50,809 bases of DNA from a phage. Position numbers and translations under genes: made by a program. The DNA lies in sequence record NC_136442.1. The stretch is one strand, 5' to 3'. Below are positions 42,975 to 50,809 of this stretch, one piece after another. The notes beneath the pieces were generated by a model. That model was not told the origin of the DNA. It did not search any database and saw only the letters and a program-made list of their open reading frames with translations. Position 1 is the first letter of the stretch; every line of letters begins with the position of its first letter.

Positions 42975-43502
42975 ATGGCTAAAAATGTTGAGCCTGCTGT
43001 AAAGGCATTAAATTTCAAAGAGTTATACAATAAAACTTATGGAGATATTGTTACGCTAAACAACCGCCACAAGTACACGCCGGAACAGGTTTTTGATATG
43101 GCGATCCGATATTTCACTTGGGCCGAAGAGAATCACATCCAGGCGGCTGAAACCGCTTCCTTTCAGGGTGACGTGTACGAGAGCAGAGTTTACAAGCCTC
43201 GCGTTTTCACGGTTAACGGATTCAGCTTGTATCTCGGCGTGACTGAGGCCGCCGTAAGCAAATGGCGTAAAGAGCCTGGATTCTGCGATGTGATGGAGTT
43301 TGTTGATAAAGTAATTTACGAGCAAAAATTCCAGCTTGCGGCAAATAACATGATTAATGCTGGGTTTATCGGTAAAGAGATCGGAGTAGAGAAGCCAGCA
43401 ACAGTGAGCGTCGAAGCGAGCGCGGCAGCTAATGCAAGCATTGACGCAGTAACTGCCGATGAGGTGAAAGAGGCTGTTATTGATATTCTGGAGCAACTTT
43501 AA
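42975..43502 (+). CDS. terS: terminase small subunit
   Basis: 175-aa ORF with AAGGAGG RBS directly upstream of the terminase large subunit, ATGA coupled. Confidence 0.65.
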   Translation: MAKNVEPAVKALNFKELYNKTYGDIVTLNNRHKYTPEQVFDMAIRYFTWAEENHIQAAETASFQGDVYESRVYKPRVFTVNGFSLYLGVTEAAVSKWRKEPGFCDVMEFVDKVIYEQKFQLAANNMINAGFIGKEIGVEKPATVSVEASAAANASIDAVTADEVKEAVIDILEQL

Positions 43503-45070
43503 TGATCATATGGGAAGATTTGACGGCGGCGCAAAAGCGAGCCATTAAAGAAATCAGCGAGCATTCATTCGAAAAGATGATCAGAATCTGGTTCCAATTG
43601 TTGCAGGGGCAAAAATTCCAGAGCAACTGGCATTTTAGCTTATTGTGCAGTGAGGTAGAGAAGATCATCAATGGAGAGTCGCAGAATGTGATTTTCAACA
43701 TTACGCCAGGTAGCGGTAAGACTGAGATTTTCTCGATCCACATGTCACCATACGCGTCATTGAAAAGCCGGAAGGTGAGAAACCTTAACCTTTCGTTTAG
43801 TGATGGCCTTGTCCAGCAAAACAGCAACCGGATAAAGGAGATTATTGGTTCTCCTGAGTGGCAAGAGCTATGGCCTGGAAAACTGGCAAAGGCGAGCGCT
43901 AAAGATCTGATAGTCACCGAAGGCGGCAAGGTTAAATTGCAAGTTAACTCACGTTCTATTGGCGGCCAGGTAACAGGTTTGCGTGGCGGCTATATGGACG
44001 ATGGTTTTACTGGTATGCTGGTTCTTGACGATCCAGACAAGCCGGATGATATGCTTTCTAAGGTAAAGCGCGAGGCTATTCACATGCGGTTAAAAAACAC
44101 AGTGCGATCGCGTCGAATGAAAGACACCACGCCAATTGTTATGGTGCAACAGCGACTACACGTTAATGATTCCACCTGGTTCATGCTTAATGGCGGGATG
44201 GGTGGTATTGAGTTTAAAGTCGTGAGCATTCCGGCGCTGGTTACGAAAGAATACCGCGAAACGCTTCCTGATTGGTTGAAGCCTGAATTTGATCGTGATG
44301 TGCTGTCAAGTAAGCCAGTGATGATAGATGGCGTCGCTCATTATTCATTTTGGCCTGCGAAGGAAAGCGCTGAGGAGTTGCTTGCATTGCGCAATGCAGA
44401 TCCTTACACGTTCTCCAGCCAATACCAACAGCAACCAATCGCGCTTGGCGGGAACGTGTTTAAAACAGAGTGGTTCCAGTATTACGGCAGCGGCGAAAAG
44501 TGCGCACTACCAAAACCGGATCGCTTTGAATACACATTTATTACTGGAGATACCGCGCAGAAGGCCGGAGAGCTTAACGACTATTCGGTTTTTTGTTATT
44601 GGGGGATGTATAAGAATCGCGTTTACTTCATTGATGGCATTCGCGGAAAGTGGGAAGCGCCGGATCTTGAATTAAATTTTATTGCCTTCGTTAACCAGTG
44701 CTGGAAGCGCAATAAGGAGTGTGGCAGCTTGCGACGTATCCACATTGAGGATAAGGCCAGCGGCACGGGTTTGATTCAGGGGGCCAAAAAGAAGATCCCG
44801 ATTGATATAAATCCCGTTCAGCGAAGCAATGACAAGGTGACGCGAGCAATGGACGCCGCGCCAGTAATGAGGGCCGGACGTGTGGCGCTGCCAGAAAATC
44901 ACCCAATGCTGCCTGAGATACTGGCAGAGGTTGCAGCATTCACTTTTGATGATTCTCATCCCCATGATGATATTGTCGATAATATAGTTGATGCTGTTAA
45001 CGTCGAAATGAACTTGGCAGATGATCCGGTGGCAAGGATGAAAAAGCTGGCTGGTCTACGCAATAAATAG
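43502..45070 (+). CDS. terL: terminase large subunit
   Basis: ATPase-type motifs (PGSGKT Walker A-like, VLDDPD Walker B-like) and C-terminal acidic nuclease-type region; 522 aa. Confidence 0.8.
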   Translation: MIIWEDLTAAQKRAIKEISEHSFEKMIRIWFQLLQGQKFQSNWHFSLLCSEVEKIINGESQNVIFNITPGSGKTEIFSIHMSPYASLKSRKVRNLNLSFSDGLVQQNSNRIKEIIGSPEWQELWPGKLAKASAKDLIVTEGGKVKLQVNSRSIGGQVTGLRGGYMDDGFTGMLVLDDPDKPDDMLSKVKREAIHMRLKNTVRSRRMKDTTPIVMVQQRLHVNDSTWFMLNGGMGGIEFKVVSIPALVTKEYRETLPDWLKPEFDRDVLSSKPVMIDGVAHYSFWPAKESAEELLALRNADPYTFSSQYQQQPIALGGNVFKTEWFQYYGSGEKCALPKPDRFEYTFITGDTAQKAGELNDYSVFCYWGMYKNRVYFIDGIRGKWEAPDLELNFIAFVNQCWKRNKECGSLRRIHIEDKASGTGLIQGAKKKIPIDINPVQRSNDKVTRAMDAAPVMRAGRVALPENHPMLPEILAEVAAFTFDDSHPHDDIVDNIVDAVNVEMNLADDPVARMKKLAGLRNK

Positions 45071-45124: not shown

Positions 45125-45140
45125 TTATGGAGATTTGACG

Positions 45141-46433
45141 ATGAGTGAAAAAACAAGGCTAGTTAAGGCCGATGGGTACAACGAGATTTTCAAGGGCAGC
45201 AAGGGCAATGGGCGTGTGGAGTTGCCTTTCTTTATGCAAGGGTTCGAATACACCACGCACGCTGATTTTTACATTCGCGACGGCCTAGCAAAACGAATCA
45301 TCGACGTTGTTCCAGAAGAAATGGTGACGCCTGGATTTAATATTGACGGCGTGGAAGACGAGGAAAGTTTTAGATCTTTGTGGGATGAGAAGCGACTAAA
45401 CGATAAAATCATTGATGCGCTTTGCTGGTCGCGTCTTTTTGGTGGCGCTGCAATCGTGGCAATCGTTCAGGATGGAAGGGCATTAAAGTCACCTGTAGCG
45501 CCTGGTGCAATCCTTGAAGATGTTCGCGTTTACGATCGCTTTCAGGTTCGCGTAGAAAAGCGCGAAACTAATCCACGTAAGGTGCGATATGGTGAGCCAT
45601 TAATTTACACCATTTCACCTGGTGCGGACTTGCCAGAATATCAGGTTCACTATTCGCGAGTCTGTATTATCGACGGTGAGCGGCTACCAAATCAGCGACG
45701 TCAGTCAAATGATGGTTGGGGTGAGTCAATCCTGAATAAGCGATTGGTTGAGGCTATTTGTGATTACAACTACTGCGAAAACTTAGCAACTCAATTGTTG
45801 CGACGTAAGCAACAGGCAGTATGGAAAGCTAAAGGACTTGCCGATCTTTGTGATGATGATGATGGTGTTAACGCCGCACGTTTGCGCCTTGCTCAAGTTG
45901 ATGATGAGGGTGGCGTAGGCCGCGCGATCGGCATTGATGCGGAAGATGAGGAATATGATGTTTTAAATTCTGATATTTCCGGCGTCGATTCATTCCTGGA
46001 AAAGAAGATGGATCGCATTGTATCTCTTTCCGGCATCCATGAAATCATCCTCAAAAACAAGAACGTTGGCGGTGTTAGCGCGAGCCAAAACACGGCGCTT
46101 GAAACCTTCTACAAGCTGATCGATCGAAAGCGAAAGGAAGAATACAAACCAATCCTTGAATTTCTGATCCCGTTCCTGATTCAAGAGGAAGAATGGAGTA
46201 TTCACTTTGCGCCGTTAAGCGTTCCCAGCGAAAAGGACCAGGCCGAGATCTTGAACAAGAATATTGATTCTTTGAGCAAGGCTATTGACGGTCAATTCAT
46301 GGATACAGAGGAGGCGCGCGACACATTGCGAGCCATTGCGCCTAACGTTAAACTAAAGGACGGCAATAACATTAAATTACCTGAGCAGGACGTAGAGCCG
46401 GAGCCAGGAACAACCGAGGGTAGCAATCAATGA
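45141..46433 (+). CDS. portal protein
   Basis: 430 aa directly after terminase large; GGAG RBS 8 nt upstream; ATG chosen over TTG at 45135. Confidence 0.7.
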   Translation: MSEKTRLVKADGYNEIFKGSKGNGRVELPFFMQGFEYTTHADFYIRDGLAKRIIDVVPEEMVTPGFNIDGVEDEESFRSLWDEKRLNDKIIDALCWSRLFGGAAIVAIVQDGRALKSPVAPGAILEDVRVYDRFQVRVEKRETNPRKVRYGEPLIYTISPGADLPEYQVHYSRVCIIDGERLPNQRRQSNDGWGESILNKRLVEAICDYNYCENLATQLLRRKQQAVWKAKGLADLCDDDDGVNAARLRLAQVDDEGGVGRAIGIDAEDEEYDVLNSDISGVDSFLEKKMDRIVSLSGIHEIILKNKNVGGVSASQNTALETFYKLIDRKRKEEYKPILEFLIPFLIQEEEWSIHFAPLSVPSEKDQAEILNKNIDSLSKAIDGQFMDTEEARDTLRAIAPNVKLKDGNNIKLPEQDVEPEPGTTEGSNQ

Positions 46434-47185
46434 TAGTGAAAGGCGTCGTTAAACAATGGCGCTTTCCTGAAGCAAGCGAGCGGCAATTGCGCCGCTCAAT
46501 TCAGGAGGCGATAAGGGATCTTGTTGTGCTGATGCGCAGCAAAACAAAGGAAATGAAATTTGACGCGGACACCGAAGAAATCAACGCCGCAGAGGATGAG
46601 ATTAGTAGCTTCGCGTTAAAGCTAATAGCTGGCATCGCCGCATCACTTCCGGTTATCGGCCTTGCTGTTTATAAATTCAACGCAAAGCAATTTATTAACG
46701 TAGCGAAATCAACGGGAGGCAAGTCAAATTCCGCCGTTATCATCCTTATGGCTATTGGGGCCAATGCGAATGAGAGTTGGTATAGGACGCTATACGGTCA
46801 ATGGCATGACATGACGATCGCATCTCTTCAAAAACTATTTGGAAACATTGTGTCTGACTGGTCAACCAATATCAGATCGGCAAACTTTCGCGGAATGAGA
46901 GATAGTCAGGTTAATGAATTGGCTGGTAAGAGGTTCGCAGTTTATAGCTCTTGGGGTAAGACAAGGGCGGAAAACATCATAGGCGCTTGGAATAGTAGAC
47001 TCATGCGCCAGCGTCTGTATGATGCAAAAGTAACTCATTATTTTTGGCATGGTATGCTTGATGACAGAGAGCGATTGCAGCATGTACAATGGGAAGGTAA
47101 GCGCATTGCGCTAGATTCTGAACATGATTTTCCTGGTGAGCCTTTCGGTTGTCGTTGTTGGGCAATACCAGATTGGAACGGTTAA
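46430..47185 (+). CDS. head morphogenesis protein (SPP1 gp7-like minor head protein)
   Basis: 251 aa, ATGA coupled to portal, conserved position. Confidence 0.6.
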   Translation: MIVKGVVKQWRFPEASERQLRRSIQEAIRDLVVLMRSKTKEMKFDADTEEINAAEDEISSFALKLIAGIAASLPVIGLAVYKFNAKQFINVAKSTGGKSNSAVIILMAIGANANESWYRTLYGQWHDMTIASLQKLFGNIVSDWSTNIRSANFRGMRDSQVNELAGKRFAVYSSWGKTRAENIIGAWNSRLMRQRLYDAKVTHYFWHGMLDDRERLQHVQWEGKRIALDSEHDFPGEPFGCRCWAIPDWNG

Positions 47186-47195
47186 GAGGTATTAA

Positions 47196-48311
47196 ATGAA
47201 AGCAAAACAAAGATTTGATAGCGCCAAAGTAAAGGCGCACTTTGATGATAACGGGTTTTTAGTTGATCGCCCTATCGTGGCGCGAATTGGTTTACAAGTC
47301 TATCAGACTCCTTTCGGTGAGCGCAGAGAATTTCGTCCTGCGTCCGAAGTATTCAAGGCCGACTCGCTCGCCACCTTTGCAGGTAAGCCGGTCACGGTTG
47401 GTCACGTCACGGTAACGCCAGAAAACGCAGAAAAGGTTGTGGTTGGTTCTTGTGCTGGCGCTGGTGTGCCGAACGGGATCGGCGTAGAGGTTCCGTTAAG
47501 CATTTACTCAAAACGAGCAATCGAAAGCGCGAAGAAGCGAGACACGGCGGAAATTTCAGTTGGTTATACATCGGTTGATATTGATAAACCAGGCTGGGGC
47601 AATAATAAAACTGGTGAGTACGTTTTCGATGAGGATGTTAGCGAAGACTGGAAACCTGATTCTCCTGATTGGGTTAAGTTTGATGCAATCCAGACTGAAA
47701 TCAAGGTAAACCACATCGCGTTAGTTTTCCGAGGTCGAGCTGGCATTGCAAAATTAAACCTTGATAGCCAGCAAGATTTTCCGTATAGTGACGATGTTAT
47801 TAACAACAAAGAGGATCAAATCATGACTGTAAAAATTAAACTGGATGGCGCTGTAGAGTTTGACGTGCCAAAAGCAGTTGCGGATCACATTGAATCACTG
47901 AAAGCTGATGCCAAAGCACAGAAAGAAAAGGCGGACGGCCTGGAAGCTGAGCGAGATGCACTGCAAACCAAAGTAGATGGCATTCAGGATCAGATTGATG
48001 CCGCAGTCAAGAAAGCCAAAGAAGATGCCGCGCAACATGCTCAATTAGTAGCAGACGCTAAAGAGTTAGGCATCAAGTGCGACGGCCTGGATGCGAAAGC
48101 AATCAAGGTTGCATACATCAAAGAAGTTATGGGCAATGACGTTTCCGATAAAACTGATGCCTATATCGAAACAGCTTTCGACATCGCCAAAAACTCTGAT
48201 AAAATGGCGGCACAGCGTAAGAGTATTAAAGGTGACTCTTTCGCTAATGAAAAACAGGATGACGCAGGTTCTAAGCTGAATCCTAACGCTCGTTTTGAGA
48301 AACTGAAATAA
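47196..48311 (+). CDS. putative prohead scaffold/core protein (coiled-coil C-terminus)
   Basis: 371 aa; alanine/lysine/glutamate-rich coiled-coil segment after residue 210; position between morphogenesis and head proteins. Confidence 0.5.
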   Translation: MKAKQRFDSAKVKAHFDDNGFLVDRPIVARIGLQVYQTPFGERREFRPASEVFKADSLATFAGKPVTVGHVTVTPENAEKVVVGSCAGAGVPNGIGVEVPLSIYSKRAIESAKKRDTAEISVGYTSVDIDKPGWGNNKTGEYVFDEDVSEDWKPDSPDWVKFDAIQTEIKVNHIALVFRGRAGIAKLNLDSQQDFPYSDDVINNKEDQIMTVKIKLDGAVEFDVPKAVADHIESLKADAKAQKEKADGLEAERDALQTKVDGIQDQIDAAVKKAKEDAAQHAQLVADAKELGIKCDGLDAKAIKVAYIKEVMGNDVSDKTDAYIETAFDIAKNSDKMAAQRKSIKGDSFANEKQDDAGSKLNPNARFEKLK

Positions 48312-48323
48312 GGAGTAATTAAA

Positions 48324-48803
48324 ATGGCTAAAATTGGAGCAAGTTATTTTGACACTATGGCGATCGCACTACCTGGCATGGTTGCCGACACTTCTAAATA
48401 CAACATTGACGGCGCTTGCGTCGTTAGTGAAGGTGGGGAAATTCTTGTTGGTACTGCCGTGCAGGTTGTCGCAGTGCAAGCGGTTGAAGGTCATAAACTT
48501 ATTAAGCGCATGGAAACAGGAAAATATCCTTACGGTGTGGCAATTCGTTCTCACTGGCAAACTGTTAACTCTCAAGGACAGATGGTTTATGAAGAAGGAA
48601 GCGCAATCAACGTAATGACATCTGGCAGAGTTTGGATTCGTTCAAGGTCCAGCGCAGCACCAGTCTTCGGCACTGCCGTTAAACTTGATGTTGATGGTCA
48701 TGAAAAATCAGACGGTTCAATCACTACTAACTGGACATACGCTGGCGGATTTGTCAAATATAAAGATATTAATCTTGTAGAAGTTCAGTTGCAGCAACTG
48801 TAA
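48324..48803 (+). CDS. head structural protein (paralogue of 48863 gene N-terminal domain)
   Basis: Shares YNIDGACV, PYG(V/I)A(I/F)RS, GRVW, AGGFVK segments with the next ORF; AAGGAG RBS. Confidence 0.55.
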   Translation: MAKIGASYFDTMAIALPGMVADTSKYNIDGACVVSEGGEILVGTAVQVVAVQAVEGHKLIKRMETGKYPYGVAIRSHWQTVNSQGQMVYEEGSAINVMTSGRVWIRSRSSAAPVFGTAVKLDVDGHEKSDGSITTNWTYAGGFVKYKDINLVEVQLQQL

Positions 48804-48862
48804 TTAGAGTTTAATATTGGGACCATCCAAAAGGATGGTCCTTTTTTTATGGAGAAATTATT

Positions 48863-49876
48863 ATGGCTTATGAAAATTTAATGATGCACTATGCATGTCC
48901 TGGCAATCTCTCTGATACTTCAACCTATAACATTGATGGCGCTTGTGTTGCTCAAGGTGATATTGAGTTTGGATCAGCGGTTCGGGTTGTCGGAATAGTG
49001 GATGGAATGAGGGTTGTGACGGCGCTTTCTGATGGTGAAACTCCTTACGGCATCGCTTTTCGTTCCCAATATGAGCACCTGAGCGGTAAAATTCTCGACG
49101 GAGAGGTGTGTAACGTCGTTTCTCAAGGTCGGGTGTGGGCGCTTACTTCTCTTAGTGAAGCCCCGAAATCATTCTCAAAACTAAGAATCGGTGTTGGAGG
49201 AGTAGTAACTGGCGTAGATGATTATGTTGGTTGGACCTTTGCTGGTGGCTTTGTTAAGCATGAAGACGGTCACATTATTGAGGTTCAGGTGAAGCAAAAT
49301 GCTCTAATCGTTCCACCCCCTCCGCCTCCTGTGGTGCTGGTAGAGTCTGCAACAATTAACACTGACAAGGAGAGTCCGCAGCCAAACAATGCTCCTGTAA
49401 AATGCAGTATCACAGTAGAGCCTGGCAACGCCACAGATAAAACTGGTGTTTGGTCTGTTGATGCTGTAAACATTGCGACTATTGATGCCGATACAGGTAT
49501 TCTAACTCCTGTTGGTAGTGATGCATTCGGTAGTGTAAACGTAAATTGGACTGCTAACGATGGAAGCAAGACTAAGGCCACGATTGTTTATCAATTCGAA
49601 AAAGCTGTTGTTAGCGTCGCTAGTGCAACCGTAAGCCTTGAGAAAAATTCTGCAATTGTTGGTGAAGCCGTTCAGGCGAGCGTTGTCGTTGCTCCAGAGG
49701 GTGCTACAAATAAATCCGGTTCTTGGTCTTTGTCAAGTGGTGATTTTGCATCTGTAGATCCTGGTACTGGACTAGTAACTACTATCGCCGCTGGCGAGGT
49801 TGATGTTATCTGGACCGCTGCTGATGGTTCTGGCGTTAAAGGTCAGCAAAGACTAACCATCACCGATCCTGAATAA
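48863..49876 (+). CDS. head structural protein with proline linker and two C-terminal Ig-like (Big_2-like) repeats
   Basis: N-terminal domain paralogous to the previous ORF; PPPPPP linker; two similar roughly 80-aa beta-rich repeats. Confidence 0.55.
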   Translation: MAYENLMMHYACPGNLSDTSTYNIDGACVAQGDIEFGSAVRVVGIVDGMRVVTALSDGETPYGIAFRSQYEHLSGKILDGEVCNVVSQGRVWALTSLSEAPKSFSKLRIGVGGVVTGVDDYVGWTFAGGFVKHEDGHIIEVQVKQNALIVPPPPPPVVLVESATINTDKESPQPNNAPVKCSITVEPGNATDKTGVWSVDAVNIATIDADTGILTPVGSDAFGSVNVNWTANDGSKTKATIVYQFEKAVVSVASATVSLEKNSAIVGEAVQASVVVAPEGATNKSGSWSLSSGDFASVDPGTGLVTTIAAGEVDVIWTAADGSGVKGQQRLTITDPE

Positions 49877-49888
49877 CATAAAAACGCT

Positions 49889-49916
49889 TTGACGCTTTAA
49901 CAAAAAGTGCTATCAT
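49889..49916 (+). promoter_or_regulatory. sigma70-type promoter TTGACG-16-TATCAT upstream of major capsid gene
   Basis: Read directly; spacer is formed by the family motif in reverse orientation. Confidence 0.5.
49895..49913 (-). promoter_or_regulatory. 20-nt family motif, reverse orientation (CTTTAACAAAAAGTGCTAT)
   Basis: Read directly. Confidence 0.6.
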
Positions 49917-49919
49917 CTA

Positions 49920-49945
49920 GGCCGTTACATTTAACGGCCTTTTAT
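49920..49945 (+). terminator. terminator-like hairpin immediately upstream of the capsid RBS
   Basis: GGCCGTTACATTTAACGGCC plus TTTTAT. Confidence 0.55.
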
Positions 49946-49957
49946 GGAGGAAACAAA

Positions 49958-50809
49958 ATGGCTAAAAAATATGATGAATTAGATGCTACTATTGTAGCAA
50001 ATCATTTGCAGATTCAGGGTGTTAAGTCCGACGCTTCTGATATGGGTATTTGGACCGCTCAAGAGCTACACAAGATCCGCTCTAACGCATACGAGAAAGA
50101 GTATCCGGCAGGTTCCGCGCTTCGCGTATTCCCTGTAACAAACGAGCTTTCTGATACTGACAAGACTTTCGAATATCAGACTTTTGATAAGGTTGGCTAC
50201 GCGAAAATTATCGCCGACTACACCGATGATCTGCCGACTGTGGACGCGTTGATGACTTCTGAGTTTGGCAAAGTGTTCCGCCTGGGTAACGCTTATCTGA
50301 TCTCCATTGATGAGATTAAAGCAGGTCAGCGAACTGGCAAGAGCCTGTCAACTCGCAAGGCTAACGCTGCGCAAAATGCACATGATCAGTTGATTAACTT
50401 CCTGGTGTTCAAGGGTTCCAAGCCTCACAAGATCGTTTCCGTTTTCGATCATCCTAACCTTACGAAAATTGTTTCTAAAGGCTGGATGAGCAATGACGGC
50501 AATACCAAGTTCCCGCAGGTAGCAAGCGATGAACTGGAGGCTGCAATCGAAACGATCGAGGAAGTGACCAAAGGCCAGCACCGCGCGACCAACATCCTGA
50601 TCCCGCCGTCCATGCGTAAAGTCCTAACGGTTCGAATGGAAAATACCACTGAAAGTTATCTTGAATACTTTCAGAAGCAAAACGGCGGTATCACTATCGA
50701 CTCTATCGCAGAGCTTGAGGATATTGACGGCAAAGGTACGAAAGGTTGCTTGGTTTACGAAAAAGATCCAATGAACATGAGCATTGAGATTCCAGAAGCG
50801 TTTAACATG
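49958..50809 (+). CDS. major capsid protein, N-terminal 284 codons (continues at 1..247)
   Basis: GGAGG RBS; ORF runs to the window end and continues in frame through the duplicated junction. Confidence 0.7.
   Translation, partial: MAKKYDELDATIVANHLQIQGVKSDASDMGIWTAQELHKIRSNAYEKEYPAGSALRVFPVTNELSDTDKTFEYQTFDKVGYAKIIADYTDDLPTVDALMTSEFGKVFRLGNAYLISIDEIKAGQRTGKSLSTRKANAAQNAHDQLINFLVFKGSKPHKIVSVFDHPNLTKIVSKGWMSNDGNTKFPQVASDELEAAIETIEEVTKGQHRATNILIPPSMRKVLTVRMENTTESYLEYFQKQNGGITIDSIAELEDIDGKGTKGCLVYEKDPMNMSIEIPEAFNM
50683..50809. repeat. terminal duplication, identical to 1-127
   Basis: Exact identity read directly. Confidence 0.95.

Follow-up and report, generated by a model that had tools for sequence, protein, structure and literature searches.

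Why would a phage place two related genes side by side immediately ahead of its major capsid protein (MCP) gene, and let only the second product carry a proline linker and immunoglobulin (Ig)-like repeats? The question is raised by the phage sequence record NC_136442.1, of which the whole stretch of 50,809 nucleotides was analysed (hereafter, the window), and by two open reading frames (ORFs) within it, A (48324-48803, 159 amino acids) and B (48863-49876, 337 amino acids), both on the plus strand. We consider it very probable that A and B are a paralogous pair of cement proteins of the phage T1 type, which would form A2B heterotrimers on a T=7 capsid, with the Ig-like domains of B displayed on its surface and the expression of B lowered by a terminator between the two genes. 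The paralogous cement pair, the heterotrimers and the Ig display have already been described structurally for T1; the additions made here are modest and consist of a two-Ig architecture, a terminator found family-wide and the recurrent exchange of the pair as a cassette.

The domain common to A and B spans 147 residues at 39% identity (BLASTP, expect value (E) 2e-29), far beyond chance, and pairwise alignment thereby confirms the homology that a first-pass annotation, made from the sequence alone, had proposed for an adjacent pair sharing about 150 amino acids. All four motifs it had listed are found, namely YNIDGACV (A residues 26-33, B residues 22-29), PYGvAiRS in A and PYGiAfRS in B, GRVW and AGGFVK. 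A search for DNA repeats within the region returned only short, diverged matches at conserved motifs, which indicates that the duplication is old and visible at the protein level only. The architecture of B can be read along the gene. Residues 1-147 (48863..49303) are the cement domain; six prolines at residues 151-156 (49313..49330) are followed by VV; and two Ig-like domains cover residues of about 158-247 (49334..49603) and 248-337 (49604..49873). The two repeats share 42% identity (E 6e-16), and PF02368 (Big_2) matches B over two stretches with 53.1 bits (cut-off 22.8), the best of them at residues 252-324. The linker and the two Ig-like repeats were thus described correctly in the first-pass annotation, except that each repeat is nearer 90 than the suggested 80 residues in length.

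The assignment of both proteins to the phage head is firmly supported by sequence families and by orthology. PF22758 (Phage_cement, 'Structural cement protein (E217 gp24/Pam3 gp6)'; gathering threshold 27 bits) matches A with 98.8 bits and B with 58.2 bits, and both proteins also match PF23982 (XM1 gp53 minor capsid protein); searches of NCBIfam gave no meaningful family for either. In a sequence search of the PDB, A matched the 158-residue 'cement protein II / decoration protein' of entries 9KMG, 9KMH and 9KZJ (phmmer E 4e-76), and residues 1-247 of B matched the 255-residue 'BIG2 domain-containing protein' of 9KZJ (phmmer E 5.6e-129). The last entry is the capsid of phage T1; 9KMG and 9KMH are the capsid and the portal vertex of the T1-like phage FCWL1. 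Global identity of A to T1 gp49 is 75.5%, identity of B residues 1-247 to T1 gp48 is 77.7%, rising to 86.4% over residues 1-147, and in a tree of cement domains A and B each fall into the T1 subclade of their own clade. These sequence comparisons identify A as the orthologue of T1 gp49 and B as that of gp48. The claim that the two are head proteins is therefore well founded, given the PF22758 matches, this orthology and the cement trimers seen on the T1 capsid by cryo-electron microscopy (cryo-EM).

Predicted structures point the same way. AlphaFold2 models of A and B have a predicted local distance difference test score (pLDDT) of 89.8 and 88.5, and in Foldseek comparisons the A model superimposes on chain 9KZJ_I with a template modelling (TM) score of 0.88 and the B model on 9KZJ_H with a TMt of 0.88 (E 6e-19). 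Superposition of the models predicts a beta-tulip fold for both N-terminal domains, and both repeats of B are modelled as beta-sandwiches (pLDDT above 90), so that structure prediction, one of the checks put forward in the first-pass annotation, yields related N-terminal folds and two Ig-like domains. Confidence is lower over the Pro6 linker (pLDDT about 72), which is kept in T1-type B proteins according to the alignment, and the first 12 residues of A are predicted to be disordered (pLDDT below 50). More distantly, the A model also resembles the cement proteins of Pam3, XM1, Borrelia BB1 and TW1; Foldseek matches of the B repeats include the Ig domain of the T5 tail tube protein pb6 and a Big_2-CBM56 structure.

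What the pair may do is best seen in T1, whose capsid was solved by cryo-EM (Chen et al. 2025, Viruses 17:351, PMC11945409). The T=7 shell of 415 copies of the MCP, gp47, is cemented by 80 homotrimers of gp49 and 60 heterotrimers of one gp48 with two gp49 subunits; the N-terminal domains of both proteins adopt the beta-tulip fold known from lambda gpD and TW1 gp56. The N-terminus of gp49 is extended, lies in the inner capsid surface and touches the A-domains of two MCPs, whereas gp48 is external only, its C-terminal Ig domain appearing as weak outward density that 'may assist adsorption' (PMC11945409). A literature search with the structure codes 9KZJ, 9KMG and 9KMH returned this paper only, and one for Ig-like decoration proteins in Drexlerviridae returned no match. 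The T1 GenBank record AY216660 labels the pair 'capsid decoration protein' and 'IgG-domain-containing decoration protein'. Presence in virions, a point that had been left to proteomics, is borne out by mass spectrometry of a close relative: liquid chromatography with tandem mass spectrometry of vB_EcoS-95 virions detected gp67 (17.1 kDa, 7 peptides) and gp68 (34.9 kDa, 12 peptides) (PMC6340994), to which A and B are 97.5% and 99.4% identical, respectively.

Transferred to the window, this architecture would have A form beta-tulip trimers on the threefold and quasi-threefold sites of the expanded shell, with an N-terminal arm reaching the inner surface, and B take one A place in 60 of the 140 trimers to give heterotrimers of one B and two A. 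By analogy with T1, orthology implies about 360 A and about 60 B per head, a ratio of 6:1. The Pro6 linker would hold the two Big_2 Ig domains (one in T1) off the shell as a flexible surface appendage, through which the phage would most likely adhere weakly and reversibly to glycans of the cell surface or the environment. From the copy number of 60, a hexon ring of six trimers that includes two heterotrimers (T1 figure legend) and the five gp29 chains in the FCWL1 portal-vertex entry, we infer that B belongs to the five trimers ringing each vertex, a placement drawn from these counts rather than taken from the T1 paper.

The arrangement is not particular to this phage. We surveyed 56 T1-like head modules from IMG/VR, 50 of them scorable, with several phage and metagenome loci added, and found the order protease, A (157-172 amino acids), B, MCP in all 50 and in three Logan/NCBI contigs; no T1-like locus examined departs from this synteny. 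When the cement domains are placed in a neighbour-joining tree, all A and all B proteins part into two groups in 200 of 200 bootstraps, with subtrees that are largely congruent, which indicates that the duplication predates the diversification of the family and is ancient and family-wide.

The Ig-like part of B is far more variable. Of the 50 modules, 25 have a B with no Ig domain, 23 a B with one and 2 a B with two, so that a second cement paralogue is conserved independently of any surface domain, and half of the surveyed T1-like phages (L035-L049 and L053-L061 among them) have an Ig-less B of 143-173 amino acids. Even phages that have nearly identical capsid proteins differ in carrying 0, 1 or 2 Ig domains. 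It is the paralogue pair that makes up the conserved core, to which the Ig domains are optional additions. A history of tandem duplication followed by Ig gain, which the first-pass annotation had called plausible, agrees with the A/B split in the tree and with the Ig-less B proteins. Where present, however optional, the Ig domains are intact, in frame and carry invariant W, A, N and D positions across many lineages in the alignment.

The first Ig domain of B aligns with residues 158-247 of T1 gp48, of which it is the counterpart, and is 73% identical to that of Chapo and AV106. The second, which has no counterpart in T1 gp48, is present in 13 close Warwickvirus records and, at 70% identity, in Tunavirus AV106; besides the window clade and AV106, two-Ig forms were found in contigs L009 and L010. 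A search of 5.8 billion proteins recovered six two-Ig clusters (336-346 amino acids) and dozens of one-Ig forms. In a bootstrap tree of Ig domains built on a reduced sequence set, all second domains group together as one clade in 48 of 50 bootstraps, and their topology fits the tree of the N-terminal domains. From these trees, the two-Ig form appears rare but old, and the second domain was most likely lost in the T1-type proteins of 255 amino acids. A recent internal duplication of the first domain as the source of the second was considered and rejected, given the one old clade and the 42% identity between the two. Identity of the second domain to Big_2 domains of HK578-like and T5-like phages is 46%, about the same distance as between the two domains of B.

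Between A and B lies a terminator-like hairpin (48819..48849, plus strand) detected by a terminator scan, with a 10-bp stem formed by GGGACCATCC and GGATGGTCC, an AAAA loop and a tail of seven T's, and a folding energy of -18.6 kcal/mol. A GC hairpin occupies the equivalent site in all T1-like loci with an A-B spacer that were viewed, in about a dozen unrelated stem sequences; in most loci five or more T's follow it, and in one repeated type the tail is shorter and T-rich (TTTTATAT). Retention of the hairpin in spite of unrelated stems amounts to covariation-type support for a real terminator; the T1 record AY216660 likewise has a rho-independent terminator annotated between the cement genes. 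The Shine-Dalgarno sequence of B, GGAG, is weaker than the AAGGAG of A. Together, the terminator and the weaker Shine-Dalgarno sequence probably lower B relative to A, which fits the 6:1 ratio towards which they would drive expression.

Downstream of B, a scan identified a TG-extended sigma-70-like promoter, TTGACG-16-TATCAT (49889-49916, plus strand; 10 of 12 matches), which would restore high expression for the MCP gene. Three nucleotides past it, folding predicts a GC hairpin with a T-run (49920-49939, plus strand) ahead of the MCP ribosome-binding site. The same promoter-then-hairpin layout upstream of the MCP gene is kept in 10 loci that differ in their stem sequences. Transcription would be expected to start within the 5' arm of the hairpin, so that RNA derived from the promoter could escape a terminator that halts upstream read-through; this is speculation from the sequence layout.

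Comparison of related genomes indicates that A and B are exchanged together between phages. The window and FritzSarasin, of the same genus, are 98.9% identical in the protease and 99.1% in the MCP but only 55% in A and 30% in the cement domain of B. Against Tunavirus AV106, Chapo and T1 the values are 62% for the protease, 76-77% for the MCP, 76-81% for A and 84-86% for the B cement domain; at the DNA level, the window and AV106 agree at 86% over the body of A, 82% over the B N-terminal domain, 73% over the first Ig domain and 65-70% over the flanks. A three-way DNA alignment places a sharp left junction after position 48362, that is, A codon 13, up to which identity to FritzSarasin is 100% and beyond which the sequence is of the AV106/T1 type. 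Codons 1-13 (MAKIGASYFDTMA; 48324..48362, plus strand), which encode the N-terminal arm, are accordingly of the Warwickvirus backbone type and mark the left edge of the exchanged cassette, and the remainder of A is T1-type. The right junction lies at about 49872-49913, in the interval from the B stop codon to the promoter spacer: BLAST shows identity to FritzSarasin returning at 49872, but the -35 region still follows AV106.

The same pattern recurs in five independent phage pairs in which the MCPs are 97-99% identical and the cassettes unrelated (A body 47-69%, B N-terminal domain 29-54%). Each of the five pairs shares residues 1-13 of A at 92-100% identity, with similarity returning within 5 nucleotides of the B stop codon. 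The cassette, comprising A from codon 14 onwards, the terminator and the whole of B (window 48363-49871), has been swapped at least five times (compared with L002, L004 and L012-L067). A and B always travel as one cassette in the survey, as would be expected of partners in a single heterotrimer. A recent transfer from Tunavirus, tried as the origin of the cassette in the window, holds in part only, AV106 being 82-86% identical over the cement domains and 73% over the first Ig domain. As far as the sequences go, the donor may have been T1-like and unsampled, or the event may be old, and either direction of exchange would fit.

The simplest account of these junctions is homologous crossover in the two best-conserved DNA stretches, the region coding for ALPG...YNIDGAC and the promoter region. 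The same pattern would result if the inward-threading arm of A had to match the resident MCP for functional reasons. Tentatively, and with a good deal more doubt than confidence, we suggest that the cement pair is a self-contained, portable and co-adapted module, in which the arm of A serves as a capsid-specific 'plug', swaps tune the number of Ig domains and the terminator hard-wires the 6:1 ratio. All of this presupposes that retention of the arm reflects selection and not a recombination hotspot.

Several considerations weigh against the scheme of a T1-type pair with displayed, adhesive Ig domains. The A2B layout is carried over from T1, the only phage for which 80 A3 and 60 A2B trimers are known, by way of proteins that are 76-86% identical, and the MCP itself is only about 76% (75.5%) identical to that of T1. 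The peripentonal site of B is our own deduction from three numbers, and partial read-through at the A-B terminator is deduced from sequence. Since half of the surveyed relatives have an Ig-less B, the core role can be filled without Ig domains. We know of no adhesion ligand for any T1-like phage. These last points feed a rival explanation that we regard as less likely than adhesion but take seriously, namely, that the Ig domains are neutral or structural add-ons, such as steric or colloidal protection of the vertices or labile passengers, and B is a position-specific cement only. This would suit the 25 modules with a short B, the range of 0-2 Ig domains on nearly identical capsids, the apparent loss of the second domain by T1 and the lack of any reported binding partner, the T1 paper saying just 'may assist' adsorption. 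It sits less easily with domains that stay intact and in frame with invariant W, A, N and D residues in many lineages, with the persistence of the second domain across deep branches, and with T4 Hoc and T5 pb10, for which PMC10385173, PMC5292684 and PMC9271167 document roles in surface binding or sensing. By analogy with Hoc and pb10, an adhesive role of the Ig domains in T1-like phages is plausible.

A different objection is that A and B might be independent of one another, with B forming homotrimeric head fibres at sites of its own or sitting at hexamer centres like Hoc and pb10. Public records do name B orthologues 'capsid fiber protein', and the Ig-bearing decoration proteins of T4 and T5 are monomers at hexamer centres; nevertheless, T1 cryo-EM puts the N-terminal domain of gp48 in a trimer with two gp49 subunits, the N-terminal domain of B is 86% identical to that of gp48, B has no sequence in common with the capsid-binding domains of Hoc or pb10, and A and B are always swapped as one cassette, so that we hold this explanation to be very improbable. 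Least credible of all, to the point of being practically discounted, is that A and B are not part of the mature capsid as proposed but scaffolding proteins, toxins or neck appendages, as GenBank labels say. Record annotations alone speak for it, no Pfam or NCBIfam match backs these labels, relatives of both proteins are found in mature virions by mass spectrometry and in the T1 and FCWL1 capsid models, and the published structures have already refuted it. Labels given to A and B orthologues are themselves inconsistent, ranging over 'putative zonula occludens toxin', 'SbcC-like scaffolding protein', 'HtjA', 'preneck appendage protein', 'capsid fiber protein' and 'hypothetical' (for example, in MN850634, OK272483 and OR525699). 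Despite these labels, the orthologues are cement/decoration proteins, as is evident from the solved structures of T1 and FCWL1.

Given the T1-type cement pair as the preferred reading, the closest known system is gp49/gp48 of T1 (also FCWL1, 9KMG/9KMH), with the same succession of protease, small cement protein, terminator, Ig-bearing cement protein, promoter with hairpin, and MCP, and with the same Pro6 linker and first Ig domain in gp48 as in B. T1 differs in that gp48 has 255 amino acids and one Ig domain whereas B has 337 and a second Big_2 domain, and in a capsid and protease of another genus (MCP 75.5% and protease 62% identical), residues 1-13 of A being of the Warwickvirus type. Among the myophages covered by PF22758 and PF23982 (E217, Pam3, XM1), the A model reaches TM scores of 0.65 with Pam3 8HDT_G and 0.60 with XM1 7KMX_a at just 16-18% sequence identity, and an Ig-bearing second cement paralogue was not seen, although no check aimed at one was made.

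Lambda gpD and TW1 gp56 resemble A as trimeric clamps at the threefold and quasi-threefold sites of a T=7 HK97-fold shell but have no detectable sequence similarity to A or B, form homotrimers only and are without an Ig domain; structural similarity to the A model is weak for TW1 5WK1_K (Foldseek E 0.05, TM 0.50), and gpD lies outside the top 50 matches. According to the T1 paper, neither threads an arm to the inner surface (PMC11945409). T4 Hoc and T5 pb10 share with B a capsid anchor and one to three flexible Ig-like domains shown on the head, and are dispensable for assembly, with a role in surface or mucus adherence proposed or shown. Their anchors are unrelated to that of B and are monomers at hexamer centres, unlike the cement paralogue that would anchor B in a heterotrimer. 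Pfam and PDB sequence searches give no link between the anchor of B and those of Hoc or pb10, and the resemblance is functional only.

For annotation, the result is of direct use: a correct name can now be given to these genes in the hundreds of T1-like genomes that label them 'hypothetical', 'scaffolding', 'zonula occludens toxin' or 'HtjA'. The variable Ig number, the A-B terminator and the cassette swaps could be put to use when T1-like phages are engineered for display or for changed adhesion to surfaces, and the system offers a tractable case for how decoration proteins keep fitting diverging capsids.

The pair is embedded in a head module that also comprises the large terminase (43502-45070), the portal (45135-46433; PF06381), a MuF-like protein (46430-47185) and, directly upstream of A, a prohead protease/scaffold gene of the DUF2213/Pa193_gp24 family (47196..48311, plus strand; PF09979, E 6.9e-25), which matches PHROG 530 'head maturation protease' with E 6e-110 and is the gene 98.9% identical to the FritzSarasin protease at the amino acid level. 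A itself (48324..48803, plus strand), the orthologue of T1 gp49, would be the small cement (decoration) protein, a beta-tulip subunit forming trimers. The MCP gene begins at 49958 on the plus strand, and its first 284 codons (49958..50809) run off the end of the window. Positions 1-127 of the window are an exact copy of 50683-50809, an overlap typical of a circularly assembled contig at k=127; the record was thus cut inside the major capsid gene, which resumes at 128-247 once the 127-nucleotide terminal duplication is removed, the joined ORF of 323 amino acids being identical to the NorthRox MCP. Over this region, DNA identity is 99.9% to NorthRox and 98.8% to vB_EcoS-95 (both Drexlerviridae, Tempevirinae, Warwickvirus), and the window is the complete genome of a T1-like coliphage of the genus Warwickvirus. 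Pfam families named after the Pseudomonas myophages E217 and Pa193 recur in the head module (Pa193_gp24 protease, E217 gp24 cement and E217_gp27), at 47196-48311 and 304-1404 of the window and in loci L009-L011. Because these families are common to both, the T1-like siphophage head module and that of the E217-like myophages appear to be related.

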